64,000 nt of DNA from Candidatus Hydrogenedentota bacterium (GCA_045863335.1 BTVY01000012.1:32001-96000), one strand, 5' to 3'. Shown: positions 26,262 through 38,936, numbered from the stretch's first letter. Program-made: numbers and translations. The notes: generated by a model from the letters alone, not told the origin.

Positions 26262-26368
26262 TGCGATCTTCTCCTGATTGATACGATTCGGGTATACCCA
26301 TGAAACGGCAGGAAAGGCCGGAATATTTCACCGGGAAGGCAAGGCGCAGTTGCCCGTGGGAATGCGCG

Positions 26369-28210
26369 TCAGAAGATCTTCTCGATGTATACCGAGTCGT
26401 TGCCTTCGAACCGGGCGTTGGCGGCCGCCTCGGTTCCAAGTCGAACTACGCCGTCTTCGCCGATTCCCGTGATACGGAGATGCACCGAACGCAACCCGCC
26501 GAACCACCAGCGGCGGTCGCAGACGTAGATCAGATCCCCCACTTCCGCGTGCATTGCATCCAGCGCGGATTGCGGCAGCACGGCCGCTTCCTCATCGGTC
26601 ATCGTGTCATCGATGATGACCCGAAGGTGCGGGCGGCGCCCGGCCTTGAGATTAAGTTCGCCACCTTTGTACGAGCGCATGGCGTCAAGTTGAGTACCTG
26701 TCGTCAGCCCGACAATCGACTCCGCCGCGCGCGCCTTCGTGAACCACGTCACAACGATGCCGATTCCCGTGCAGATGACCATTCCGTACAGGGCGCGCAT
26801 GAAATTGTAGCTGTTTGGTCCCATGCCGAAGGCGAAGGGTTGAATGAGCAGCGCGTCAAGCTTAGGCACGAAACTCAAGAAGACCGCGATCAGCCCCGCC
26901 ACCATGGTCGCCACGGCGGCGGCGGGGGTATATCGCTTCCAGAGAACGCCCAGCAGGATGGCAATGACAATAGGCGGAGTCACGGCAGCCGTGAACATGG
27001 CGTGGGCGTTGTAAATGCTCTTCGACATCATGAACACGGGAACGAGCGCGATGCCGAGCAGACAGGTGGTCACGCTGCTGAACCGCGCCACGATCAGATA
27101 GTGGCGATCTTCCGCGTTGCGGTGCACGTAGGGACGATAGATATCGTTCACGAAGATCGCGCTGACTGCCGTAATCAAGGTATCCGCCGTGCTCATGAGC
27201 GCGGCCGTCAACGCCGCGAGCACGAAACCGAAAACGCCCGGCGCGCAGAGAAAGTGAGCCGCGTCAATGAAGGCGTCCTTGTCCTCGGTCACGAGTTCGC
27301 CGTTTTCGACAAGGGCCCGGGCAACCCATCCGCCGCTGCTGACGGTGATGGCCGCGAGGGGTGCGAGGACGAGGATCCAGAACACGGCCATCTTGCGCGC
27401 GTCCGCGACGGTTCGGATGGAAAGAAAGCGCATGATCATGCCTTGGTTCATCAACACGAAGGCGCCCGTATTGGCGAGACCGTCTTGCGCAAAGAGCCCG
27501 ACAAAGCTGAAATCGTCGGGCCGGTTGAACTCGGAAAAGGCGAAGCGGTGCGACTGGGGCAGCAGCGCCCAGAAATCGCCGAAGCCGCCCACGTGGTAGA
27601 CACCCACGAAGAACAGTCCCAGCCCGGCCACAAGGAGGATCATCCCCTGGGCAAGGTCCGTCATGATGACGGAGGTCTGGCCGCCGGCAAACATGTACAG
27701 CATGACGGCGAAGCCCGCCGCCACGGCGCCCATCATGACAGGCCAGCCAAGGAGGGTGTTCAGGGCCTGTCCAAGCGTGTAGAGATTTACGCCCACGTAG
27801 CCGACGAGATAGAGCAGGATCAGACCGGTGGCGGCCATGCGCGCGCCGGTACCGAAACGCCGCTCGAAATATTCGGGCACCGATTGAATGCGCCCGAAGT
27901 AGATAATGGGGAGCCAGACAAGAAGGAGGATGGGAATCCAGAACCAGTCGTTGAGATAGGTCTGCGTGCTTCCGATGCCGTACTTGAAGCCGACCTGGCT
28001 GTACTTGATGAAGCTGTAGCTGCCGACGGTCGTCGCGATGCCGGAGAACGCGATCAACCACCACGCAAACCGTTGGCCGCCGAAGAAGAAGTCCTTGGTG
28101 CTGCGGGTGTATTTGCCAAACCAGAGCCCGAAGCCGACCACGCACACGAAATAGGCAATGATGACGACGTAATCGAGGGGTTCGCCCTTGAGGTTTTGGG
28201 TATCGATCAT
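26369..28210 (-). CDS. Sodium:solute symporter with a C-terminal soluble extension
   Basis: DFFFGG, SVPEYFERRFG, GGQTSVIMTD and AALMSTAD motifs; ATG overlaps the upstream stop. Confidence 0.93.
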   Translation of the reverse strand: MIDTQNLKGEPLDYVVIIAYFVCVVGFGLWFGKYTRSTKDFFFGGQRFAWWLIAFSGIATTVGSYSFIKYSQVGFKYGIGSTQTYLNDWFWIPILLLVWLPIIYFGRIQSVPEYFERRFGTGARMAATGLILLYLVGYVGVNLYTLGQALNTLLGWPVMMGAVAAGFAVMLYMFAGGQTSVIMTDLAQGMILLVAGLGLFFVGVYHVGGFGDFWALLPQSHRFAFSEFNRPDDFSFVGLFAQDGLANTGAFVLMNQGMIMRFLSIRTVADARKMAVFWILVLAPLAAITVSSGGWVARALVENGELVTEDKDAFIDAAHFLCAPGVFGFVLAALTAALMSTADTLITAVSAIFVNDIYRPYVHRNAEDRHYLIVARFSSVTTCLLGIALVPVFMMSKSIYNAHAMFTAAVTPPIVIAILLGVLWKRYTPAAAVATMVAGLIAVFLSFVPKLDALLIQPFAFGMGPNSYNFMRALYGMVICTGIGIVVTWFTKARAAESIVGLTTGTQLDAMRSYKGGELNLKAGRRPHLRVIIDDTMTDEEAAVLPQSALDAMHAEVGDLIYVCDRRWWFGGLRSVHLRITGIGEDGVVRLGTEAAANARFEGNDSVYIEKIF

Positions 28211-28434
28211 GGCGCGACCGCCTCGGCCGGCAGGTAGGGCAGCCAAAAGGTAAAGGCGCAGTAAAAAATCAGCAACCCAACAAAGCCGCCCACGATCGTC
28301 CATACGATCCGCTGGTCGCGCGGGTCCTTGAGGTTGATGTACCCGCTGCTGACCCCGCACCACACGCCGATCGCGCAGAGCACGGCGCCAACGCCGAACT
28401 CAACGAGAATCGGCAAAATTCGTTCCATACCCAT
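28207..28434 (-). CDS. Small 2-TM protein coupled to the symporter
   Basis: MGMERILPILVEFGVGAVLCAIGVW...WLPYLP; ATGA overlap with the symporter start. Confidence 0.7.
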   Translation of the reverse strand: MGMERILPILVEFGVGAVLCAIGVWCGVSSGYINLKDPRDQRIVWTIVGGFVGLLIFYCAFTFWLPYLPAEAVAP

Positions 28435-28581: not shown

Positions 28582-31278
28582 ATGATTCGTGTATGTGCCG
28601 TACTGTGGATCGCCGGGCAAGTCGCGCTGGGCGCCGCGGTCGAAGAAGAAGTCGAAGTGCAGGGCAACTATTCCACGTTCCGCATCGCGCCGGGCCCGGG
28701 CGCTGGCGTGGAATGGTTCGGGTCGCCGGTATCCAACGTGAACCACGCGGGCGGCGAAGGGCTGCTGCTGGAAGGATTCGGCGTCGGTAATTTTTACGTG
28801 CCGAACCGCCGGCTTAACGAGAACCTCGAGATCGTGGATACCGCCGGCGGCGAGCCGGTTATTCGCTACAGCTACGAATGCGACGGCCCCAACATCCGCG
28901 GGCTCCACGTGACCCGCACGATGGAGCCTCAACCCGACGAAGCGTCTATTCGCGTAACCTGGAAGGTGGAGAACAAGGGCGACGAAGACCAATGGGTGTC
29001 GCCCTGGGTGCGAAACGAGGTCCGGCCCGGCGGTTCCACCGAAGTGCGGGACCGCATGGAACTGGCCACGTGGGAAGGCATCGTCAACGTCGAGCGGAGC
29101 GGCTATCACGTGGCGTCGCGAAATTGGGTCGCGGCCACCGATCCCGCGTCCAAGGAAACGCTCTACGCGGTGTTCGACGCGGACCAGACTCATTCCTTTC
29201 TAGTGAATCGCGACGAACAGGTCCCCTTCGGGGCCTTCCAGACCGCTTTCGTGCCGCGCCTGATGAAGGTCGGCGACGCGTGGGAGACCACGTACCGCGT
29301 AAATGTTGTGCGCGGACTCACCCATGTGAATTTCGCCACGGATGAGCTGGCGGCGCAGGTGGACTACGAGGCCGGCGAATTGAGTGTGTTGCTGGCGGCG
29401 GTGAAGCCCATGCCGGGGCTCCAGATCGAAACCAGCATTCTCGCGGCCAACGGCAAAGTCTGGCGGTTGCCGGAGAAAAAGTTCGACATCGACCCTAACA
29501 CCGTCATCCGGTGCACCTACGAGTGGCAAGCCCCGGGCAACGGATCCTACGAGTTGCTGGCGCGGGTCACGCGGGGCGGCGAGGCCGTCGCTCTCGGCAG
29601 CGATACGGGATCGCCCCACGGCGGCATCGACACCCAGTTTGTCGTGGGCGATATGGAAGCCGACGATTTCGAACCGTGGACCGATGCGCCGTTCGCGCTC
29701 GAACGGGGATCGCGCACCTTGCCGCGGCAGTTCGCGGTGCCCGGCGACACGGCCATCTGGTTTGAGAGTTCGCTGGAGAAGATCTTCCCGGAAGACGTTC
29801 CGCAGCGGACGGGCGACTACAAGGCCATCGCCAGCCTGTCGCTGGCGGCGAACGAAAGCGAATCATTCCAGGTCGTGCTGCGCCCTCCTGACGGAATGGA
29901 TCTCCGGAATGTGAACTTGCGCGCCGTGGACCTCGTAAACGCCGCCGCGGGTTCGCGCATCGCGTCATCGCAGATCAGCCTGCATACGGTGGCGTACTAT
30001 CCGGTGCGTATTCCGACGCATTTCGAAGGACCCACCGGCGTCTGGCCCGATGCCTTGCCCGAATTGGAGCCATTCACCGCACAAGGCGGCCAATGCAGCC
30101 CGATCTGGATCACCGTCCATGCGCCCGCAGGCACGCCGCCCGGCGCCTATGAAGGGTACCTCGAACTCACGGCAAATGGCCGCGACCCGGTCGAATTGGG
30201 ATTGCGGGTCAACGTGTACAACTTCGAATTGCCGCGCACGCCGCACCTCAAGACAGACTTCGGATTCTGGATCGATGGCGCGGATAGCCTGTGCCGCCGC
30301 ATGGGGTACTCTGGCAGCGCGGAACAGTTGTTGGACGCCTATCTCGAAAACGGATTGCGCCACAAGGTGACGCTGCGCGAATTGGCCCAGTTCCCGTCGG
30401 AGAGCGCGGATTACAAGGCCAGCCTCGCGATGTTCGAACCGAAGATCAGGGAGCTGATCGACGGCGGCGCGAGCACGCTATCGGTGCCGGCGTCGCTGTT
30501 CGAGTTCCCGGAGCAGCTCGCGGTGGCGAACGAGTTTGTAGAAAAGGCGAATCTTCGCGATCGCGTGTTCTGCCAGATCGCGAATGAGCCGGAACGCCCG
30601 GCTTGGCCGAGGCTGTTCGAAACCATGACGCAATGGCGGGAGATCGCGCCCAACATCCCGCTTATGCTGACGACCTACGGCTCGCAGCCCTTCTTCCACG
30701 AAGCGGCGGACGTCTGGGCCATCCACTCCCCCATCATGGATACGGTGAACAACAAGACCATCCTGGATCGGATCGCCGCCGGCAACGCCGTGTGGTGGTA
30801 CGTGAACCATACGCCGCCACGGCCCTACGCCAATTTCTTCATCGACTTCGCCGCCATGGAACACCGCGTGTTCTTCTGGCAGACCTGGGCCCTGGGCATG
30901 AAGGGCGTTCACTACTGGAACGCGAACTACAGCGAGCCCGGCGTGAATCCGTGGGTCAACCAGCTCGACATCACGCCCACCAACGGCGACGGATTCCTCC
31001 TCTATCCCGGACCGAAGGGCCCGGTTAGTTCGATTCGCTGGGAAGTCATCCGCGACGGGATCGAGGACTACGACTACCTCGTGCTATTTCGCGAACGCAT
31101 GAAGCAGCTCGAAGAAAAAGGCGGACACGCCGCCCTCCTGGAACAAGCCGCGGAAGTCTACAACCTGAAGGAACTCGTCCCCGACCTCGTCACCTTCACC
31201 CGCGACCCCAACGTCCTCATCAGCAAACGGGAAGCCCTGGCAAAGATGATCGTGGCCATGGACGAAGCCCTGCGGTGA
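28582..31278 (+). CDS. Secreted DUF4091/GH123-like glycoside hydrolase domain protein
   Basis: NESESFQ, WPDAL, PIWITV, WWY, GDGFLLYP and SIRWEVIRDGIEDYDY motifs. Confidence 0.85.
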   Translation: MIRVCAVLWIAGQVALGAAVEEEVEVQGNYSTFRIAPGPGAGVEWFGSPVSNVNHAGGEGLLLEGFGVGNFYVPNRRLNENLEIVDTAGGEPVIRYSYECDGPNIRGLHVTRTMEPQPDEASIRVTWKVENKGDEDQWVSPWVRNEVRPGGSTEVRDRMELATWEGIVNVERSGYHVASRNWVAATDPASKETLYAVFDADQTHSFLVNRDEQVPFGAFQTAFVPRLMKVGDAWETTYRVNVVRGLTHVNFATDELAAQVDYEAGELSVLLAAVKPMPGLQIETSILAANGKVWRLPEKKFDIDPNTVIRCTYEWQAPGNGSYELLARVTRGGEAVALGSDTGSPHGGIDTQFVVGDMEADDFEPWTDAPFALERGSRTLPRQFAVPGDTAIWFESSLEKIFPEDVPQRTGDYKAIASLSLAANESESFQVVLRPPDGMDLRNVNLRAVDLVNAAAGSRIASSQISLHTVAYYPVRIPTHFEGPTGVWPDALPELEPFTAQGGQCSPIWITVHAPAGTPPGAYEGYLELTANGRDPVELGLRVNVYNFELPRTPHLKTDFGFWIDGADSLCRRMGYSGSAEQLLDAYLENGLRHKVTLRELAQFPSESADYKASLAMFEPKIRELIDGGASTLSVPASLFEFPEQLAVANEFVEKANLRDRVFCQIANEPERPAWPRLFETMTQWREIAPNIPLMLTTYGSQPFFHEAADVWAIHSPIMDTVNNKTILDRIAAGNAVWWYVNHTPPRPYANFFIDFAAMEHRVFFWQTWALGMKGVHYWNANYSEPGVNPWVNQLDITPTNGDGFLLYPGPKGPVSSIRWEVIRDGIEDYDYLVLFRERMKQLEEKGGHAALLEQAAEVYNLKELVPDLVTFTRDPNVLISKREALAKMIVAMDEALR

Positions 31279-31568: not shown

Positions 31569-32729
31569 TTATGCAGGCGTGATCCGCCCGAGCACGACGG
31601 GCTCTTGCGCGCCGGTGGCGTGGGGGACGTTGGAGGCTTTTCCGCAGAAGAGTTCGTTGCCGAGGATGGCGGCGCTGACGGCGTCGATGGCGTCGTGGGG
31701 CAGGCCGTACTCGTCGCTGGTGCGCACGGTGACGTCGCCCAGGCCGCTTTTGACCCGTTGCACGAGGGCCTTGTTGTTCACGCCGCCGCCGCTGAGGATG
31801 AGGCGGGAGATCTTGTACTGGGGTTTCACGAAGCGGTTGTAGGCGCGGACGATGCAGTAGCTGACCGCCGAGGTCACTGTGGCGACGAGGTCTTCCATGG
31901 AGTGATCTTTGCGCCCGGCGAGCGCGTCGCGCAGGTAGACTTCAGGGCCAAACTCGTCGCGCCCGGTGGTCTTCGGGGGAACTTTCGCGAAGTAAGGGTG
32001 GTCGAGCAGGAACTCGAGGAACTCGTCGATCACCACGCCTTTGGCGGCGGCTTCGCCATCATCGTCGATTTCCTGGTTGCCGCTGGTGATATGCCGAATG
32101 GCGCCGTCGATGACGATGGTGCCCGGGCCCGCGTCGAACGCGACCAGTTCGTCGAAGCTCGGCGGGATGACGGAGAGTGTGCTGATGCCGCCGAGGTGGA
32201 GGCGCGCCATGATGCGGTCCTCGCGGGCGAACAACACGAAATCGGAATAGGTGGAGATAGGACCGCCCTGTCCGCCGGCCGCCATGTCACGGGCGCGGAA
32301 ATCCGAGGCTACGGGCAAACCGGTTCGTTCCGCAATAACGGCCGACTCGCCGACCTGAAAGGTGCCGGTGGCCTGGTCATACCCACGGGGCGGATAGTGG
32401 GCCACGGTAAATCCGGTGGAAGCGACGAAATCGACCTCGCACATCTCGGACTGCGCGAGGCGGACCATTTCCTGGGCGGCGTCCGCGAGGAACTCGCCGA
32501 GTTCGAAGTTGAGCAGGCAGACTTCGCGCACGTCCTTCTTGGCCACGATCAGGCGCGTGCGCAAACCCGAGGAATAGGGGAAATGGCGCGTCTTCATGAG
32601 CTTCATGTGGAGGCCCGGTCCGCTCCCCTTGATGCGGACCAGTGCGGCGTCTACCCCGCGGGCAGAACTGCCGCAGGTCAAACCTATGGCGAATCGCGTC
32701 GCCTTCTTGGAGATTGCCTGGAAAAGCAT
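31569..32729 (-). CDS. anmK: Anhydro-N-acetylmuramic acid kinase-like protein (divergent)
   Basis: DFRARDMAAGGQG, FDAGPG, PPKTTGR and SGGG..N; several canonical motifs altered. Confidence 0.8.
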   Translation of the reverse strand: MLFQAISKKATRFAIGLTCGSSARGVDAALVRIKGSGPGLHMKLMKTRHFPYSSGLRTRLIVAKKDVREVCLLNFELGEFLADAAQEMVRLAQSEMCEVDFVASTGFTVAHYPPRGYDQATGTFQVGESAVIAERTGLPVASDFRARDMAAGGQGGPISTYSDFVLFAREDRIMARLHLGGISTLSVIPPSFDELVAFDAGPGTIVIDGAIRHITSGNQEIDDDGEAAAKGVVIDEFLEFLLDHPYFAKVPPKTTGRDEFGPEVYLRDALAGRKDHSMEDLVATVTSAVSYCIVRAYNRFVKPQYKISRLILSGGGVNNKALVQRVKSGLGDVTVRTSDEYGLPHDAIDAVSAAILGNELFCGKASNVPHATGAQEPVVLGRITPA

Positions 32730-32762: not shown

Positions 32763-34415
32763 TCACTTCACGGTTTCCAACAGTGCATTGCCAAAGTAGT
32801 GGAGCAGAATGTCCCCGTACCCCGCACCGGCAAGCGCCATGCCCCGCGCGCCATGCTGACACAATCCTACCCCATGGCCACGTCCGCCGCCAACAAAGGT
32901 GAACGCGGTTGATCCGTCAGCCCTTATTAATACCATGGCGCTGGGCAAACCGCCAAACGCTTGGCGGATAGGGAGTTCCTTGCGAATGGTCACACTGCCG
33001 GAGGAGCCGGTGACGGTGACGGACTTGAGCCGGCCACTCACGCCCCGCTCGCCGGGGGTGATGGAGCGCACCGTGCCGACCTTGTAGCGCTGGTTAACGA
33101 GCCGCGTCACCTCGGCCACGGTGAGCCGCCGGGACCAGCGGAACCCCGCGTCGCCGCTGCAGTAGGCGTTCGGCTGTTGTTGCAGCCATTTCCCCAGATT
33201 GGCGGACGGCGTGGAGGTTGGAACCGTTCCCTTCGGAAAGTCAGCCGCGCCGCGCAGGCTCATGTCCGGTGGCGAAGACCAGACGGCATCGTTGTCCTCA
33301 GACCAACCGCCGCAGTTGGAGCTGAACACGGCCGGGATGGTGCGGACGCCATCCGTCAGGACTTGGCCGCGTGTCGCGACGACGGCGGCATCGGTGGCGG
33401 GGTGCCGGCCGCTGAATCCGCCGTAGACCCGGTCGCCCTCGCTGTTCGTGAAATTAAACCCGTTAAGAATATGCTTGAGCGCGAGGTGCCCCAGGACGTC
33501 GCTTCGAGCAGCGATGGCCTGGGCTTTCAACGCTTCGGACGGCCACAGGGCGGGCATTTCCGCGGGTAGCACCCCGGCGAGGTAGTCTTCCACCGGGAGC
33601 GTTTCGAAGACGCTCAACGCGGAATCGGACTCGACCGCCAGGCTGATTTCTCCGGTGTAAGACGCACCGGACCGGTCGCCGGGGTGGCTGACGCGAATCG
33701 GGGCCGTCGAGGTCAACCGGAAGGGTACGGGCCAATTCATGGTGTGGCCATCGGGTGATTTGGCCGTGACGGTTCCGCTGCCCGGCAGAATGGTCTCGGG
33801 CCGGACCCAGGACCACTGGTTGTCCTGTTCCAGTTCCTTCTTGAAGGCGTTGGCCTGGGCTTCGGTTTCAAAACGGTGCAGGGAAATCCAATACTCCCGG
33901 CCGTCGAGGATGTGGCCGGACGCGGTCCGGTAACGCGACCCCATGAGGATGGGTTCCACGGGATAGCCTTGTGCGCGCCATCCCTCCACATAGGCATTCA
34001 TCACGTCCGCTTCATGGGGTTTGAAGGTTTTGACGAAATTGTGGAAATGCTGGCGCGGCGGAGTGGCCTGGGTCAGGGTGAGCGACCACGACGCGCCCGG
34101 GAGATCGAGCGCCCCCCCATCATGTTCGAGGCGTATTGCGCTGGTGCTTTGAATGTCTACCGACCGCGCGCCGTGAAAGAGCCGAATCGTGACAGGCGGA
34201 TTCGCCTCGGTGACAGTGTCCTCGGGTTTCGACTCAGGCGCCGGGGCCGGAGCGGACGCCGGTTGCGGCGCGGGTGCGGGTGCAGGCGCTGCTACAGGCC
34301 ACGGCGCTGGCGGCGGCTCGGGTGAGCGGCAACCGGTCCATGTCGCGCCAATCACTAGAACCAAGAACGCAAGACTCGCACGCCACAAGCCGTGCCCCGT
34401 TAGGGGCGAAATCAC
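32763..34415 (-). CDS. SpoIID/LytB domain lipoprotein (lytic transglycosylase)
   Basis: EDYLAGVLPAEM, EALKAQAIAARS, SSNCGG, GRGHGVGLCQ.GA; lipobox WTGC; Pro/Ala linker. Start position uncertain. Confidence 0.9.
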   Translation of the reverse strand: MISPLTGHGLWRASLAFLVLVIGATWTGCRSPEPPPAPWPVAAPAPAPAPQPASAPAPAPESKPEDTVTEANPPVTIRLFHGARSVDIQSTSAIRLEHDGGALDLPGASWSLTLTQATPPRQHFHNFVKTFKPHEADVMNAYVEGWRAQGYPVEPILMGSRYRTASGHILDGREYWISLHRFETEAQANAFKKELEQDNQWSWVRPETILPGSGTVTAKSPDGHTMNWPVPFRLTSTAPIRVSHPGDRSGASYTGEISLAVESDSALSVFETLPVEDYLAGVLPAEMPALWPSEALKAQAIAARSDVLGHLALKHILNGFNFTNSEGDRVYGGFSGRHPATDAAVVATRGQVLTDGVRTIPAVFSSNCGGWSEDNDAVWSSPPDMSLRGAADFPKGTVPTSTPSANLGKWLQQQPNAYCSGDAGFRWSRRLTVAEVTRLVNQRYKVGTVRSITPGERGVSGRLKSVTVTGSSGSVTIRKELPIRQAFGGLPSAMVLIRADGSTAFTFVGGGRGHGVGLCQHGARGMALAGAGYGDILLHYFGNALLETVK

Positions 34416-34616
34416 GCCGCGGACGTGACCCAGGGCATCGCCCTGGGAACGGGAACGCAAGAAATGAATCGCCCTGAAAGGGCGAAACACGGACCTTGCA
34501 GTGGTCGCGTTCTCCGATTTCGATTGGATGTTGCGCTCCTTCAGAGCTTGAACATGGAGAGTACGTTCGTATCCCAGGGCGTTGCCCTGGGCTATCCTAT
34601 TGTGGCCTTTCAGGCC
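34394..34616. repeat. Composite palindromic (BIME-like) element
   Basis: gccccgttaggggc, cccagggcatcgccctggg, gccctgaaagggc, gctccttcagagc, cccagggcgttgccctggg, ggcctttcaggcc. Confidence 0.8.
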
Positions 34617-34681
34617 AATTTTTGGGATGGTCGGACGAAGCCGGGTTGCATGAACGGCGACGTCGAGTAGGGTTCGAAGAA

Positions 34682-34703
34682 GCAGGCGGGACGCCTGCGC
34701 TAC
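34682..34703 (-). repeat. Single GTAG REP of the 6258 family
   Basis: gcaggcgggacgcctgcgctac. Confidence 0.8.
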
Positions 34704-34731
34704 ATGGCTGGTGACATTGGTGCTCGGGGAG

Positions 34732-36594
34732 TCAATCACGTTCCAATGCGGCACGCAGGTTTCCTTTCGATTCGGTTAGTTGCGCCTCGGCTTGGTCGCG
34801 GGGGACGCCACGGCGTTTCATGAGGACGGCCACGCGTATGTCGTCGCCCGCGACGCGCAACTGGGTGTCCGCCTCGGACTCGGGCAAGCCGGTCAACGCA
34901 GCGACGATGCGCGTGGCGCGTTTGCGCAGTTTCGCGTTCATGGGTTTGACGCCCACCATGTATCCCTCGAAGATGCGACCGGAAAGAGCCATGGCGCCGG
35001 TGGAGATCATGTTGAGCACGAGCTTCGTGGCGGTGCCGGCCTTGAGGCGCGTCGACCCGGGCAGGACTTCCGGCCCGGTGTCCAACGCAATGGTCCAGTC
35101 GGCAATGCTGTGCGCAGAGGGATTGCAGCATAGCAGGCACGTGTATGCGCCGTGCCGCTTCGCTTCCGCGAGGCCCGCGTGCACGTACGGAGTGGTGCCC
35201 GAGGCGGCGATTCCGACGACCACGTCATGCTCGCATAGCTTCGGTTGTAATGCGCCCAGATCGGCGACGGCCGCGGCCTCGTCGTCTTCGACGCCTTCGC
35301 CGCTGGAGCGGAGCGCCGCGTCGCCGCCCGCGATGATGCCGACGACCTGTCCAGGGTCCACTCCGAAGGTGGGCGGGCATTCCGACGCGTCCAGTACACC
35401 AAGCCTTCCGCTCGTTCCCGCGCCAAGGTAGATAAGCCGTCCACCGGCTGCGAACGCGTCAGCAACGCGCTGCACCATATGAGCGATCGGTGCGCGGGCG
35501 GCGCGCGTGGCGTCGACGGCTTCCTGGTCAGCGTCGCACATGCGCGCAACGATGGCGTCGGCGGTGAGGGTGTCGAGGAATCGCTCGTGTTGCGTTGCGG
35601 ATTCCGTTCGGGAGAGGACCACTTCCGTCGCGACGGATCCGGCGCGAGCTTCGGAAACGAACAGCGAGCGACTGGGGTCGGCAATCAGACGCAAACTCGC
35701 CGCGGTTCCATCAAACCGCGTTCGCTCAAACGTAGAAGGCAAAGCAGGGTTGCCATGACAATTCTTAACCATCGACTGAGCACGGTCGACGAGTTCGGGA
35801 AGCGCGTCGACCACGCCCCCGTGAATGTACATAGGGGCAGCATTCGTCAGTCCGGTTTCAAGTGCCGCGTTGGCAGCGAGTGCGAACAATTCGGTTAGGG
35901 CGTCAACGACACATCCCTCCGCCGCGCTATCCGAATCGTGATACAGAGCAATCACCGCCGGTGCCAGCGACGCGACGTCCTGCTTCGTCGCGGAACGCGA
36001 CCAGACGATCAACTCGGAAAAGGTGCGCAGTCCCGCAGCTTCCGGTAGCGCGTCCACCAACTTGGTGGGTCCGCATTGACCGTCTAGGGACGCGGCGGCG
36101 GCGCGCAAGGCGCGGACTGCAATGTCGTAGGCGCTGCCCACGTCGCCGAAAAGCGCGCCACGGCCGCCGAAGATGCGGGGCTGGCCTCCGGCAGTCTTTG
36201 CGATGACGCTGGAGCCCGTGCCCGCAATGACGACCATGCCCTCGCCGTCGCCGATGTTGGCGTGCAGCATGGTGTCCACATCGCTGGCGACCACGGCGCG
36301 TCGCACACCCAGCGACTGGACCAGTCCATTCGCGATGGCATTACGCAGCATCTCATTCCGCGCGCCGGAGATCCCGGCAGCGACTTCGCAGGTTGACGCG
36401 TCCCGCGCACCGAGCAGTTCCCGGCCGAGTTGGATCAGCATGCGAAGTGACTGTGGAACTCCCAACTCAACCGGGTTGGACGGACCGCCCGTTCGTTCTG
36501 CAATCGCGTTGCCTTCCGCGTCATAGAGTGCGGCGCGTGTGGCCGTGCCGCCGCCATCAAACGCAAGGTAGATTGTGTCGTGAGGATCTGTCAT
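34732..36594 (-). CDS. murQ: Fusion of a BadF/BadG-type amino-sugar kinase (MurK/NagK-like) and MurNAc-6-P etherase MurQ
   Basis: N-terminal FDGGGT, IAGTGS; C-terminal GAGTSGRLG.LDASECPPTF, EGVED, SGTTPYV, GSTRLKAGTA. Confidence 0.93.
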   Translation of the reverse strand: MTDPHDTIYLAFDGGGTATRAALYDAEGNAIAERTGGPSNPVELGVPQSLRMLIQLGRELLGARDASTCEVAAGISGARNEMLRNAIANGLVQSLGVRRAVVASDVDTMLHANIGDGEGMVVIAGTGSSVIAKTAGGQPRIFGGRGALFGDVGSAYDIAVRALRAAAASLDGQCGPTKLVDALPEAAGLRTFSELIVWSRSATKQDVASLAPAVIALYHDSDSAAEGCVVDALTELFALAANAALETGLTNAAPMYIHGGVVDALPELVDRAQSMVKNCHGNPALPSTFERTRFDGTAASLRLIADPSRSLFVSEARAGSVATEVVLSRTESATQHERFLDTLTADAIVARMCDADQEAVDATRAARAPIAHMVQRVADAFAAGGRLIYLGAGTSGRLGVLDASECPPTFGVDPGQVVGIIAGGDAALRSSGEGVEDDEAAAVADLGALQPKLCEHDVVVGIAASGTTPYVHAGLAEAKRHGAYTCLLCCNPSAHSIADWTIALDTGPEVLPGSTRLKAGTATKLVLNMISTGAMALSGRIFEGYMVGVKPMNAKLRKRATRIVAALTGLPESEADTQLRVAGDDIRVAVLMKRRGVPRDQAEAQLTESKGNLRAALERD

Positions 36595-37883
36595 GAGACT
36601 CGCGCTGCCTGCGCATACTTCTCCACGATCCCGACACGGATCGTGCCGTTCTCGCAGATGTCCTTGTAGAGATAGGCGCTTGGGTTGGGCGTCCGCGCGA
36701 GGGTCTCGCGATCGACGTGGACCAATCCGTACCGCGCGGCATATCCGTCGATCCATTCAAAGCCATCCAACATGGAGCGATGAAAATAGCCGCGCACATG
36801 GATACCTTGCGCGAGGGCTTCCTGCACGATCGCCAGATGATTCACGAGGTATGCGCACCGCGCGGCGTCATCCGTTGTATCGAGGCCATTTCCGGTTATG
36901 TAAATGGGCTTTCCGTATTCGGAAATCGTTTTGAGCACTTCCCGCAGCCCCTCCGGGTCCGTTTCATACCGGGGGGGTCGTATCGGACTTCCCGTTGGAT
37001 CGGTTAATGCCCGAAAGAACTGTCGCGGTTTCCCGGCGCGAAAGCAGACGCGCTCTTTTCCGTAATACGAAACCGCGATAAAATCCGCGCCCCCCCCCAG
37101 ACGTCGCGCACCACCGAGCGGAAACGGGGCCTCGTCCCGAATCATCGCCGCGGGAAACAGGTCGTTGGCCCGGCGCATTTCACGGCGCGCCGCCCTCAGG
37201 TCCCAGGCGCTCTCTTCGTTTACCGGCACGCAATTGCGCGCGCGGATGGAAAGGCCCACTGCGGCCTCCGGCTGAAGGCGTTGGATGATGGCGTAGCTCT
37301 CCGCTTGGGCGTGCATCAGCGCGTTCAACGCAGTGAATATAGACCAAATGCCGCGCCGCCCCGGAGGCCATTGTCCTTCGAGCCACGCCATGGTGGCGAG
37401 GTGTTCCGGTTCCAGCAACGGAATCCAATGCGCGCAGTATTCGGAAAGGGCCTCGACGACGCGCTGCACAAAAGCGCCGAAGGTGCGCGCTGCGTCGCGC
37501 TGCAACCATCCTCCCCGATCGGCAAACCAGGCCGGCAACGTCACATGATTGAGCGCGCAGATGGGCGTCATGCCGCGCCGCCGCAGGGCCTCCGCGACGT
37601 GTGCGTAATGAACGAGCGCCTCGGGATCGAAATGGTCGGGTTCGGGCTGGACCCGGCTCCACTCGATCGAAAACAGATGCGCGTTGTGACCCAGTTTGCG
37701 CGCGAGTTCGAAATCCGATTCGTAGTGTTCGAAATGCTCCGAGGCGCGACTCGACGTGCGACGGTCGGCGATGCGGCCGGGACGCTGTTCCCAGCGCCAC
37801 CAATCGGCATTAAAGTTGCCCCCTTCCACTTTGTACGCGGACGTAGTGGCTCCCCAGAGAAAGTCTTTCGGAAAGGCGTTCAC
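36591..37883 (-). CDS. Glycoside hydrolase family 1-fold protein lacking the catalytic nucleophile
   Basis: FPKDFLWG, FSIEWSR, FEW..GY..RYGL scaffold; ITENG reads ITGNG; GTG start after GGGGAG. Confidence 0.9.
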   Translation of the reverse strand: MNAFPKDFLWGATTSAYKVEGGNFNADWWRWEQRPGRIADRRTSSRASEHFEHYESDFELARKLGHNAHLFSIEWSRVQPEPDHFDPEALVHYAHVAEALRRRGMTPICALNHVTLPAWFADRGGWLQRDAARTFGAFVQRVVEALSEYCAHWIPLLEPEHLATMAWLEGQWPPGRRGIWSIFTALNALMHAQAESYAIIQRLQPEAAVGLSIRARNCVPVNEESAWDLRAARREMRRANDLFPAAMIRDEAPFPLGGARRLGGGADFIAVSYYGKERVCFRAGKPRQFFRALTDPTGSPIRPPRYETDPEGLREVLKTISEYGKPIYITGNGLDTTDDAARCAYLVNHLAIVQEALAQGIHVRGYFHRSMLDGFEWIDGYAARYGLVHVDRETLARTPNPSAYLYKDICENGTIRVGIVEKYAQAARVS

Positions 37884-37988
37884 ACGGTACTCCCCACCGC
37901 GTCTCATGTCTGATGTCCGCCAGCCAGCAGCGGGGTGACAACGGTGCGCCCCAATGGTAGCATGGCCGTCTCGCATGGAGAAAACGGA

Positions 37989-38936
37989 ATGACAACCAAC
38001 GAGGTGGCCGTACTGATGGCCTTGCTCCGGATACCCGGCGCAGGAACGGTGTCCGCGCGACGCGCCGTGGCCTTGGCGGCGCACCTCGGCGTTCCGCTCG
38101 ATGCGCTTCCACTCATTCCCACACGGCAACTGTTGGAGCAGTTCCCGACGAGTCAGACCGATCAATTGGCGTCTTTCCTTCCGCAATGTACCGGGGAAGC
38201 CTGCGACCATGAGGTGAGGTTCCTGGATCGTATACTCCGGTCGGGAGCCCAAGTCATCACCTGCGCGGACGGTGACTATCCCGATTCACTCGCTCGCGAC
38301 TTGGGGAATCGGGCGCCCGCCCTGCTTTTCCTGGCAGGCGATCGGGAACTGCTCGAAGCGCCTTCGGCCGCGGTCGTTGGCGCGCGGGAAGTCAGCCGGC
38401 GCGGTGCGATGCTGGCAGGCGAAACCGCAGCCGTCTTCGCGGGCGCCGGCATCAACGTGGTGAGCGGCGGCGCGACGGGGGTCGATTCGGCGGCCCATGC
38501 GACGGCGCTGGCGCATGGCGGTACGACGGTCGTCGTATTGCCGCAGGGTCTGTTACCCTTCCGCGGTTCGCGCGAGTTGCTGCAAGCGGTGGAGGACGGC
38601 CGTGCGGCGATTCTGAGCGAGTTCTTGCCCGACATGACGTGGCAAACCCACGCCGCGGTAACGCGCAACGCGACGATCAGCGCGCTGTCGAACTTGGTCT
38701 GCGTCATCGAACCCAAGAAGCAGGGCGGCAGCGTGCGGACCGCTCGGCTGGCCATCGAGCATGGGAAACGCGTGCTCGTCTATTGCGACGCGCAGCACCT
38801 GGATCTGGGTACCACGTTGACCCGTTCGGGCGCGGTGTCACTACTCGATGCCGAGGGCCAGTTCAACCCGGAATACCTGCTTCAGCAGTGGAATTCAGCC
38901 CCCGCTCAATCCGCGGGACAGACGGAACTCTTTTAA
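37989..38936 (+). CDS. dprA: DNA-processing protein DprA/Smf
   Basis: DYP..L, AVVGAR, VVSGGA.GVD.AAH, SEF.P, RN and GGS..TA motifs. Confidence 0.88.
   Translation: MTTNEVAVLMALLRIPGAGTVSARRAVALAAHLGVPLDALPLIPTRQLLEQFPTSQTDQLASFLPQCTGEACDHEVRFLDRILRSGAQVITCADGDYPDSLARDLGNRAPALLFLAGDRELLEAPSAAVVGAREVSRRGAMLAGETAAVFAGAGINVVSGGATGVDSAAHATALAHGGTTVVVLPQGLLPFRGSRELLQAVEDGRAAILSEFLPDMTWQTHAAVTRNATISALSNLVCVIEPKKQGGSVRTARLAIEHGKRVLVYCDAQHLDLGTTLTRSGAVSLLDAEGQFNPEYLLQQWNSAPAQSAGQTELF

Follow-up and report, generated by a model that had tools for sequence, protein, structure and literature searches.

A clade of glycoside hydrolase family 1 proteins without the catalytic nucleophile, linked to peptidoglycan-recycling genes in Candidatus Hydrogenedentota

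Glycoside hydrolase family 1 (GH1) is a textbook double-displacement family, and the defining mechanistic feature of its classical retaining enzymes is a nucleophile Glu. What, then, is to be made of a gene that encodes an intact GH1 protein, carries Gly in place of this Glu, and lies among genes of peptidoglycan recycling? The question is raised by a locus of a Candidatus Hydrogenedentota bacterium, within a stretch of 64,000 nucleotides (GCA_045863335.1 BTVY01000012.1:32001-96000) that was analyzed as a whole and is called the window here; coordinates are counted from its first letter. To our knowledge, the Hydrogenedentota are known almost only from metagenomes. The gene and the two codons at issue are these:

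36591..37907, minus strand: GH1-fold gene without the nucleophile Glu, 438 amino acids (aa) from an ATG at 37907 (Pfam PF00232, AlphaFold2, Foldseek)
36891..36893, minus strand: GGA codon of Gly331 at the GH1 catalytic nucleophile position, ITGNG for ITENG (alignment, homologues)
37410..37412, minus strand: GAA codon of Glu158, the retained acid/base, in a LEP motif for NEP (alignment; Glu in 114/146 clade sequences)

The protein was analyzed as its 430-aa version (P0001), which runs on the minus strand from a GTG at 37883 to a TGA at 36593-36591 in an open, intact reading frame. The ATG at 37907 is likely the true start, because a 91%-identical orthologue (P0002) has 438 aa; it adds 8 residues and has no other effect. 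P0001 matches the Pfam family Glyco_hydro_1 (PF00232) with an E value of 1.3e-78 and 264.9 bits against a cut-off of 22.6, its residues 2-412 covering profile positions 3-450 of 453, and this bears out the intact GH1 scaffold described in the initial annotation of the locus. It matches only GH1 models, with no match to the NagZ model (NCBIfam NF003740, GH3), and reaches 265.2 bits with the GH1 beta-glucosidase equivalog TIGR03356 (NCBIfam), under the cut-off of 478.5. The AlphaFold2 model, made with 43 homologues as input, has a predicted local distance difference test score of 91.3 and a predicted template modeling (TM) score of 0.92. Foldseek placed the Pyrococcus horikoshii beta-glycosidase BGPh (1vff) first, with TM scores of 0.85/0.86, and all of the top matches listed were GH1; 1vff is also the closest solved structure by sequence (E 3.9e-71). 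By sequence and fold, P0001 is a GH1 family member, a (beta/alpha)8 barrel, and it fails the defining mechanistic feature of the classical enzymes.

The alignment with 1vff locates the changes. At the nucleophile motif, YITGNG stands against YITENG; elsewhere LLEP stands against FNEP, HLFS against YRFS, SAYKVEG against SSHQIEG, VSYY against VNYY, and HRSMLDGFEW against YWSFMDNYEW. The GGA codon and the further substitutions listed in the initial annotation (YKVEG, HLFS, LEP, SYY, and RS..DGFEW) are thus all present. P0001 shares with BGPh and with a classical bacterial sister group the GH1 (beta/alpha)8 fold and the hallmark DWW.WEQ, and, as in BGPh, it retains the acid/base Glu, Tyr273, Glu376, and Trp377. 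The protein has no signal peptide and no hydrophobic segment and is therefore presumably cytoplasmic.

A missing catalytic residue could be a sequencing error or the mark of a decaying pseudogene of an ordinary beta-glucosidase, and nothing beyond the absent Glu speaks for this. Among the 120 top-ranking database homologues (all at E 2e-90 or better), 118 are without the nucleophile Glu, so ITENG is not what the relatives carry; only P0102 and P0115 are classical, with NEP, NYY, ITENG, and DNFEW. The nucleophile codon is GGA also in a 91%-identical orthologue at locus L002, and the two genes differ with nonsynonymous and synonymous divergences (dN and dS) of 0.047 and 0.528, that is, a dN/dS of 0.089. 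With an intact frame, a confident structure model, and a fully supported clade in the tree described below, error and decay are refuted, and we attach next to no credence to them. The initial annotation had already argued against an error.

To place the change in the family, we built a FastTree phylogeny of 191 sequences, comprising database proteins of 380-520 aa and open reading frames (ORFs) from 79 loci; alignment rows that contained X or exceeded 25% gaps were left out, and duplicates between the two sources were kept. The tree was rooted on the classical group, as midpoint rooting had put the root inside the diverse clade. One branch, with a support of 1.0 and a length of 0.56, separates 45 Glu-bearing sequences plus L046, which has Ala, from 145 sequences without the nucleophile. 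Residue counts below are given over the 146 non-Glu sequences (the 145 of the clade and L046), with the 45 classical sequences as the sister set, and they mix database proteins with locus ORFs, including duplicates and relatives. The nucleophile column of the non-Glu set reads G 120, A 19, and other 7 (n = 146). The tree points to a single loss of the nucleophile Glu that was then kept.

A profile of the clade, run against 1.84 billion representatives of 50% identity clusters, ranked its own kind at the top. The best 150 matches in this library included 138 single-domain proteins, 99 of them with Glu and 39 without, and about 36 of these 39 bear the clade signature P155 plus DGFEW, as read by eye. 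Where clade loci have named records, the labels are mostly 'Candidatus Hydrogenedentota/Hydrogenedentes'; a few bins, including the closest, are labeled otherwise, and these are labels only. Among longer proteins, a search for fused forms gave no more than lactase-type repeats of eukaryotes and a single GH1 protein of 849 aa. A 697-aa protein (P0007) was rejected as a true GH1-kinase fusion; it is a read-through from a 5'-truncated GH1 part to the kinase, and its end is not in frame with MurQ.

Outside the clade, sporadic classical-type GH1 proteins have Ala or Ser in place of the nucleophile (L046, P0169, P0206, and P0232), NEP, NYY, and DNFEW being otherwise intact or partly so. L046 has no recycling neighbors, and the four may represent independent losses or errors. 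Two proteins of the representative library, P0155 and P0165, keep the nucleophile Glu and show HR for HW and D[GC]FEW; both have Asp or Ser at the acid/base position, and P0155 also has SYY. Judging by these motifs, they may be intermediates towards the nucleophile-less clade.

The loss of the nucleophile is accompanied by changes throughout the former sugar pocket. Q18, R70, H113, N157, E331, W369, and N374 are found in 45/45 classical sisters and N272 in 44/45, and we take these positions to be contacts of the GH1 -1 subsite. Unlike BGPh and the sisters, the clade has lost or relaxed all eight, as the columns of the 146 sequences read:

Q18: Q 53, A 36, S 16, P 12, K 10
R70: L 109
H113: H 86, E 26, D 13
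N157: L 43, Y 33, R 16, F 15; Asn in fewer than 4
N272: S 99, A 24
E331: G 120, A 19
W369: R 86, Y 19
N374: G 136

Other positions are kept in the clade, namely E20, W119, D373, F375, E376 (143/146), and W377 (141/146), and the Y273 column reads Y 102 and F 22. The acid/base E158 is present in 114/146 sequences (78%), including all early branches. In terms of the sugar, the O4/O6 side of the pocket thus appears preserved, and mostly smaller or apolar residues appear to open the O2/C1 side and, to a less uniform extent, the O3 side. Newly conserved across the clade are R34, H50, P155, W227, R230, G275, H389, T398, N400, and G418. The initial annotation had also proposed new Lys and Arg residues for a lactyl or phosphate group; as a family feature this does not hold, since K18 occurs in 10/146 sequences (P0001 and a few others) and R369 in 86/146.

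The genes around the GH1-fold gene give a metabolic context. Its neighbors in the window, several of which are predicted to act on N-acetylglucosamine (GlcNAc), N-acetylmuramic acid (MurNAc), or 1,6-anhydro-MurNAc (anhMurNAc), are the following:

34732..36594, minus strand: BadF/BadG-type (MurK-like) sugar kinase-MurQ fusion, 620 aa (Pfam, PDB 8zo3, MurQ models)
32763..34754, minus strand: SpoIID/LytB-domain protein with a lipoprotein-like signal, ..LVIGATWTGC (Pfam, models)
31569..32729, minus strand: anhydro-MurNAc kinase AnmK, the more divergent of the genome's two copies (Pfam, models)
37935..38936, plus strand: dprA, divergent, the conserved left border of the operon (Pfam, relatives)

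The ATG of the kinase-MurQ gene overlaps the stop codon of the GH1 gene (ATGA). Its kinase half has PDB 8zo3, an 'N-acetylmuramic acid/N-acetylglucosamine kinase', as best match (E 7.5e-24), and its other half scores over the curated cut-offs of models for MurQ, the MurNAc-6-phosphate etherase. The SpoIID/LytB protein, presumed to be an exported glycan-cleaving enzyme, probably has its true start downstream of 34754. In relatives without the GH1-like gene, dprA can abut kinase-murQ directly. A complex prediction for P0001 with the kinase domain scored 0.00 with the verdict 'no answer', which is evidence neither way.

Synteny was examined in 80 loci, 79 from genome contigs plus the window's own. 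A kinase gene lies directly downstream in 31 of them, and the nucleophile Glu is missing in 31/31 (G 25, A 3, Q 1, and an alignment gap in 2); within the DNA covered, these loci also contain MurQ (23), AnmK (15), and SpoIID (13). The classical loci differ, as 43/43 Glu-bearing loci have no kinase, MurQ, AnmK, or SpoIID neighbor. Six loci belong to neither group: L027 and L028 are clade genes cut by a contig end, L052 is an incomplete clade gene with SpoIID and AnmK immediately after it, L047 and L056 are classical genes broken at the nucleophile region, and L046 is the classical gene with Ala. The nucleophile-less GH1 clade is linked to peptidoglycan-recycling genes, and the conserved ITGNG-type clade with a murQ connection that the initial annotation had suggested looking for does exist.

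Some features of these loci are recorded for their own sake. The kinase-MurQ fusion recurs in 23/31 linked loci, and the kinase stands alone in a subclade (L003, L007-L009, L014, L021, and L034). The second AnmK of the source genome (G000:C53:32476-33585) scores 320.9 bits and the operon copy 256.8; many genomes of the same family likewise carry two copies, whereas genomes of other families carry a single one, frequently that in the operon. The window also encodes an 898-aa protein with a GH123 catalytic domain (28582-31278, plus strand), convergent with the operon's end; GH123 is annotated as a family of beta-N-acetylgalactosaminidases using substrate-assisted catalysis. Further on, a 645-aa ORF (26300-28237, plus strand) has no Pfam match at E 0.001, and the coding strand there is undecided because a 664-aa ORF overlaps on the other strand.

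Which step of wall recycling could such a protein supply? We surveyed 135 genomes of the phylum; the source genome (G000) is 99.4% complete. By score, about 60 of the 135 have a clade-level GH1 gene, 56 of them at 387 bits or more and 4 as partial pieces; the next full-length GH1 matches score at most 265 bits. AnmK is present in 133/135 genomes and NamZ in 126/135, the latter nearly always in a frame of ~730-780 aa, which in the 4 loci checked fuses a beta-lactamase-like domain to NamZ. This fusion lies beside the operon in L106, L090, and L098, the order in L106 being bla-NamZ, dprA (opposite strand), GH1-like, kinase-MurQ, SpoIID, and AnmK. Since NamZ and the GH1-like protein coexist in one neighborhood, they should do different jobs, and with NamZ in so many of the genomes, the exo-muramidase role is already filled. 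In the source genome, the beta-lactamase/PBP4B-like-NamZ fusion is found at G000:C7:85875-88121 (L083), with no signal peptide seen; it also occurs in L090, L098, L106, and L107, and its gene is often found on the far side of dprA, adjoining the recycling operon.

The cut-off of the NagZ model (207 bits) was reached in 0/135 genomes, the best score being 197 and that of the source genome 124.6; this model is narrow, as only 3/14 control genomes pass it. The source genome encodes two GH3 proteins, one membrane-anchored with three LysM repeats and one with a signal peptide, as well as two weak GH20-like proteins with signal-like N termini (anchors and signals were judged by eye), and no GH84 and no MupG were found in it. 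The membrane-anchored GH3 protein (G000:C39:36514-38625, minus strand) has its three LysM repeats at the C terminus and reads KRFPGLGSAAGDGY at the NagZ signature. Neither GH3 protein has the His-containing NagZ motif. In Bacillus subtilis, AmiE, NagZ, and NamZ are encoded in the murQ operon as well and break down peptidoglycan one after the other. The activity that lacks an assigned gene here would be a beta-N-acetylglucosaminidase.

What P0001 catalyzes, on which substrate, and by which mechanism, we infer from these pieces. Our preferred reading, offered tentatively and with a good chance of being wrong, is that the gene encodes a putative cytoplasmic exo-beta-N-acetylhexosaminidase of peptidoglycan recycling, most likely a GlcNAc-ase that does the job of NagZ, with the acetamido group of the substrate as nucleophile. 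The kinase domain is closest to the MurNAc/GlcNAc kinase 8zo3, and a glycosidase that frees these sugars would therefore be the logical preceding step. As there is no enzymic nucleophile, the only established retaining route for such a substrate is one in which the 2-acetamido group takes part and Glu158 acts as acid/base. The combination of an acid/base carboxylate with no enzymic nucleophile is found in P0001 (Glu158 and Gly331) as in GH18, GH20, GH84, and GH85, and is not universal in the clade.

In mechanistic terms, SpoIID would release wall fragments outside the cell, and the GH1-like protein would split the imported disaccharide, most likely GlcNAc-beta-1,4-(1,6-anhydro)MurNAc and less likely MurNAc-GlcNAc. 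The non-reducing sugar would sit in the old -1 pocket through Glu376 and Trp377, which would contact O4 and O6. The cavity-forming substitutions probably lie where the 2-acetamido group would be, and the room provided by E331G, R70L, N157L, N272S, and N374G would accommodate it. Its oxygen would attack C1 as Glu158 protonates the leaving group, and the resulting oxazolinium intermediate would be opened by water activated by Glu158. As the gene order suggests, freed GlcNAc and/or MurNAc would pass to the MurK-like kinase next door and anhMurNAc to AnmK, and MurQ would turn MurNAc-6-phosphate into GlcNAc-6-phosphate. The operon would be self-sufficient if it supplied a cytoplasmic GlcNAc-ase for imported GlcNAc-(anh)MurNAc. 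N-acetylated muropeptide sugars had been proposed as ligands in the initial annotation; the clade and its recycling setting (MurK-like-MurQ, SpoIID, and AnmK) fit this proposal, with either MurNAc or GlcNAc as the possible sugar.

Known systems offer partial parallels. NagZ, which has an Asp nucleophile, is unlike P0001 in family, the two being unrelated (Pfam gives only PF00232 for P0001), and in the mechanism proposed; the job and pathway position proposed for P0001 would be those of NagZ. Plant myrosinases are GH1 enzymes without the acid/base and use ascorbate. They and the Klotho domains resemble the clade in combining the GH1 fold with replacement of one catalytic Glu, and differ from it in being eukaryotic, in the residues lost, and in their biology. 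Like GH18, GH20, GH84, and GH85, P0001 is a (beta/alpha)8 barrel in which strand 4 bears the acid/base and strand 7 lacks an enzymic nucleophile, and unlike a member of those families it has no sequence relationship to them. Andre-Miral et al. (2015) reportedly turned a GH1 beta-glycosidase into a trans-beta-N-acetylglucosaminidase 'by mechanism engineering', in which the acetamido group takes over as nucleophile. Engineered GH1 mutants are laboratory products used with activated donors, unlike the clade, which is natural, old, under purifying selection, changed at further pocket positions, and part of a metabolic operon. The change itself is that of engineered glycosynthases such as Agrobacterium Abg E358G/S/A, with Glu replaced by Gly or Ala at the same position; small residues (Gly, Ser, and Ala) work there, Gly and Ala being best for GH1, according to PMC8819650. 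NagZ itself cleaves GlcNAc-(anh)MurNAc upstream of AnmK and MurQ (PMC8054146).

Several observations weigh against a substrate-assisted hexosaminidase. The counts are not independent, because duplicates and related sequences are included. Glu158 is missing in 32/146 sequences, in three subclades (T 15, D 5, R 5, A 3, N 2, and others), where it appears to have been lost secondarily. The initial annotation had described the -1 subsite as remodeled; the changes it listed are there, but across the clade the former subsite looks relaxed and not re-fixed to one new conserved pattern, and true hexosaminidase families keep such residues. In GH20 and GH85, a conserved assisting Asp/Glu or Asn beside the acid/base orients the acetamido group (PMC10570127). 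Unlike these families, the clade shows no conserved counterpart: no clade-wide candidate for an acetamido-orienting second carboxylate or Asn was found among the 146 sequences, the possible contact columns, taken from sequence only, being E/D113 (39/146), Asn332 (93/146), and Tyr273 (102/146). About 75 of the 135 genomes have no clade-level match, so the gene is dispensable. When the AnmK region was inspected in 20 of the genomes without a match, hand-picked and not random, the kinase-MurQ/AnmK cluster was kept in 9, with SpoIID between them in 6/9, and there was no positional replacement of the GH1 gene in those 9 loci; in its place dprA abuts in 5, an ATP-binding cassette transporter lies in 1, and the ORFs tested in 3 have no Pfam match. 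The idea of positional replacement thus gave no functional clue in the 20 genomes examined. A complementary distribution with NagZ-like GH3 proteins was likewise rejected, as GH3 proteins near the cut-off are seen whether or not a genome has the gene.

Because the pocket is relaxed, Glu158 is not universal, no acetamido-orienting residue stands out, and the operon is kept without the gene, a non-catalytic pseudo-glycosidase is a serious rival, if on the whole an unlikely one. Such a barrel would bind a muropeptide sugar through Glu376 and Trp377 and act as a substrate-capturing or regulatory partner of kinase-MurQ; Klotho-type GH1 domains serve as binding modules. It would fit the loss of the nucleophile in all clade members and the drift of most classical -1 contacts, as well as the strict adjacency and translational coupling to the kinase gene and the dispensability of the gene in many relatives that keep the operon. 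In conservation, the catalytic face, crudely defined, also stands out less from the rest of the protein (mean column entropy, 1.65 versus 1.96) than it does in classical relatives (1.13 versus 1.59). The replacement, however, is nearly always Gly or Ala and not random, and the acid/base Glu persists in all basal lineages. Where it is lost, a carboxylate, which a binder does not need, is often found elsewhere in the pocket: a subclade of 14 with T/N/A at 158 has E or D at 113 in 14/14, and a subclade of 7 with R/A/S at 158 has E at 369 in 5/7; a subclade of 4 has no carboxylate at 113, 158, or 369. As there are just three events, this 'moving carboxylate' is only a hint, not a result. A free sugar as the product of a glycosidase also explains the kinase neighbor more simply.

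The remaining alternatives are catalytic. An exo-beta-N-acetylmuramidase would hold MurNAc at -1, with the O2/O3 side taking up the acetamido and 3-O-lactyl groups, and would pass MurNAc straight to MurK-MurQ. The columns of Q18 and H113, presumably contacts of O3/O4 in GH1 enzymes, rank with the most relaxed ones and often hold small residues, Arg369 is common in the clade, P0001 has Lys18, and the fusion of the kinase to MurQ suggests MurNAc as the kinase substrate. The supposed lactyl-binding basic residues are not conserved, though, and the enzyme would be redundant with the widespread NamZ fusion, which in L106 stands beside the same operon, so that we regard this role as improbable. Quite improbable, too, is a natural glycosynthase-type enzyme with another nucleophile, which would use phosphate to yield alpha-GlcNAc-1-phosphate, use the sugar's O6 to yield a 1,6-anhydro sugar for AnmK, or open the anhMurNAc ring before the kinase acts. 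Basic residues (H69, R369, and K18) line the vacated site in P0001, the operon has its own divergent AnmK copy, and GH1 variants with Gly, Ala, or Ser at the nucleophile accept external anions and show no normal hydrolysis, as described in PMC8819650. None of the three basic residues is conserved across the clade, however; a phosphorylase product has no need of a sugar kinase, yet this is the strictly linked partner; and AnmK already handles anhMurNAc. We therefore give little weight to the clade as a natural counterpart of the laboratory glycosynthase, with phosphate or the sugar's own O6 as nucleophile. Were the phosphate version true, alpha-GlcNAc-1-phosphate would feed uridine diphosphate-GlcNAc synthesis without ATP; were the O6 version true, a GH1 scaffold would have become a 'lytic' glycosidase of the cytoplasm, supplying the operon's own AnmK.

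In the literature covered, from which subscription journals were largely absent, there is no report of a natural bacterial GH1 clade without the nucleophile or of a GH1 gene in a MurQ/AnmK cluster. We have found no earlier report of what is described here, a natural bacterial GH1 lineage that lacks its nucleophile, is under strong purifying selection, and belongs to a metabolic operon. An inactive protein would be unusual as well, since it would be a pseudo-glycosidase of bacteria that had been taken on to bind muropeptides in partnership with a kinase. If it is active as a hexosaminidase, it would be the first in GH1, and it would represent a natural switch from an enzymic nucleophile to neighboring-group catalysis in clan GH-A, a switch so far only engineered. 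Peptidoglycan recycling in Hydrogenedentota would then also have its missing GlcNAc-ase step.

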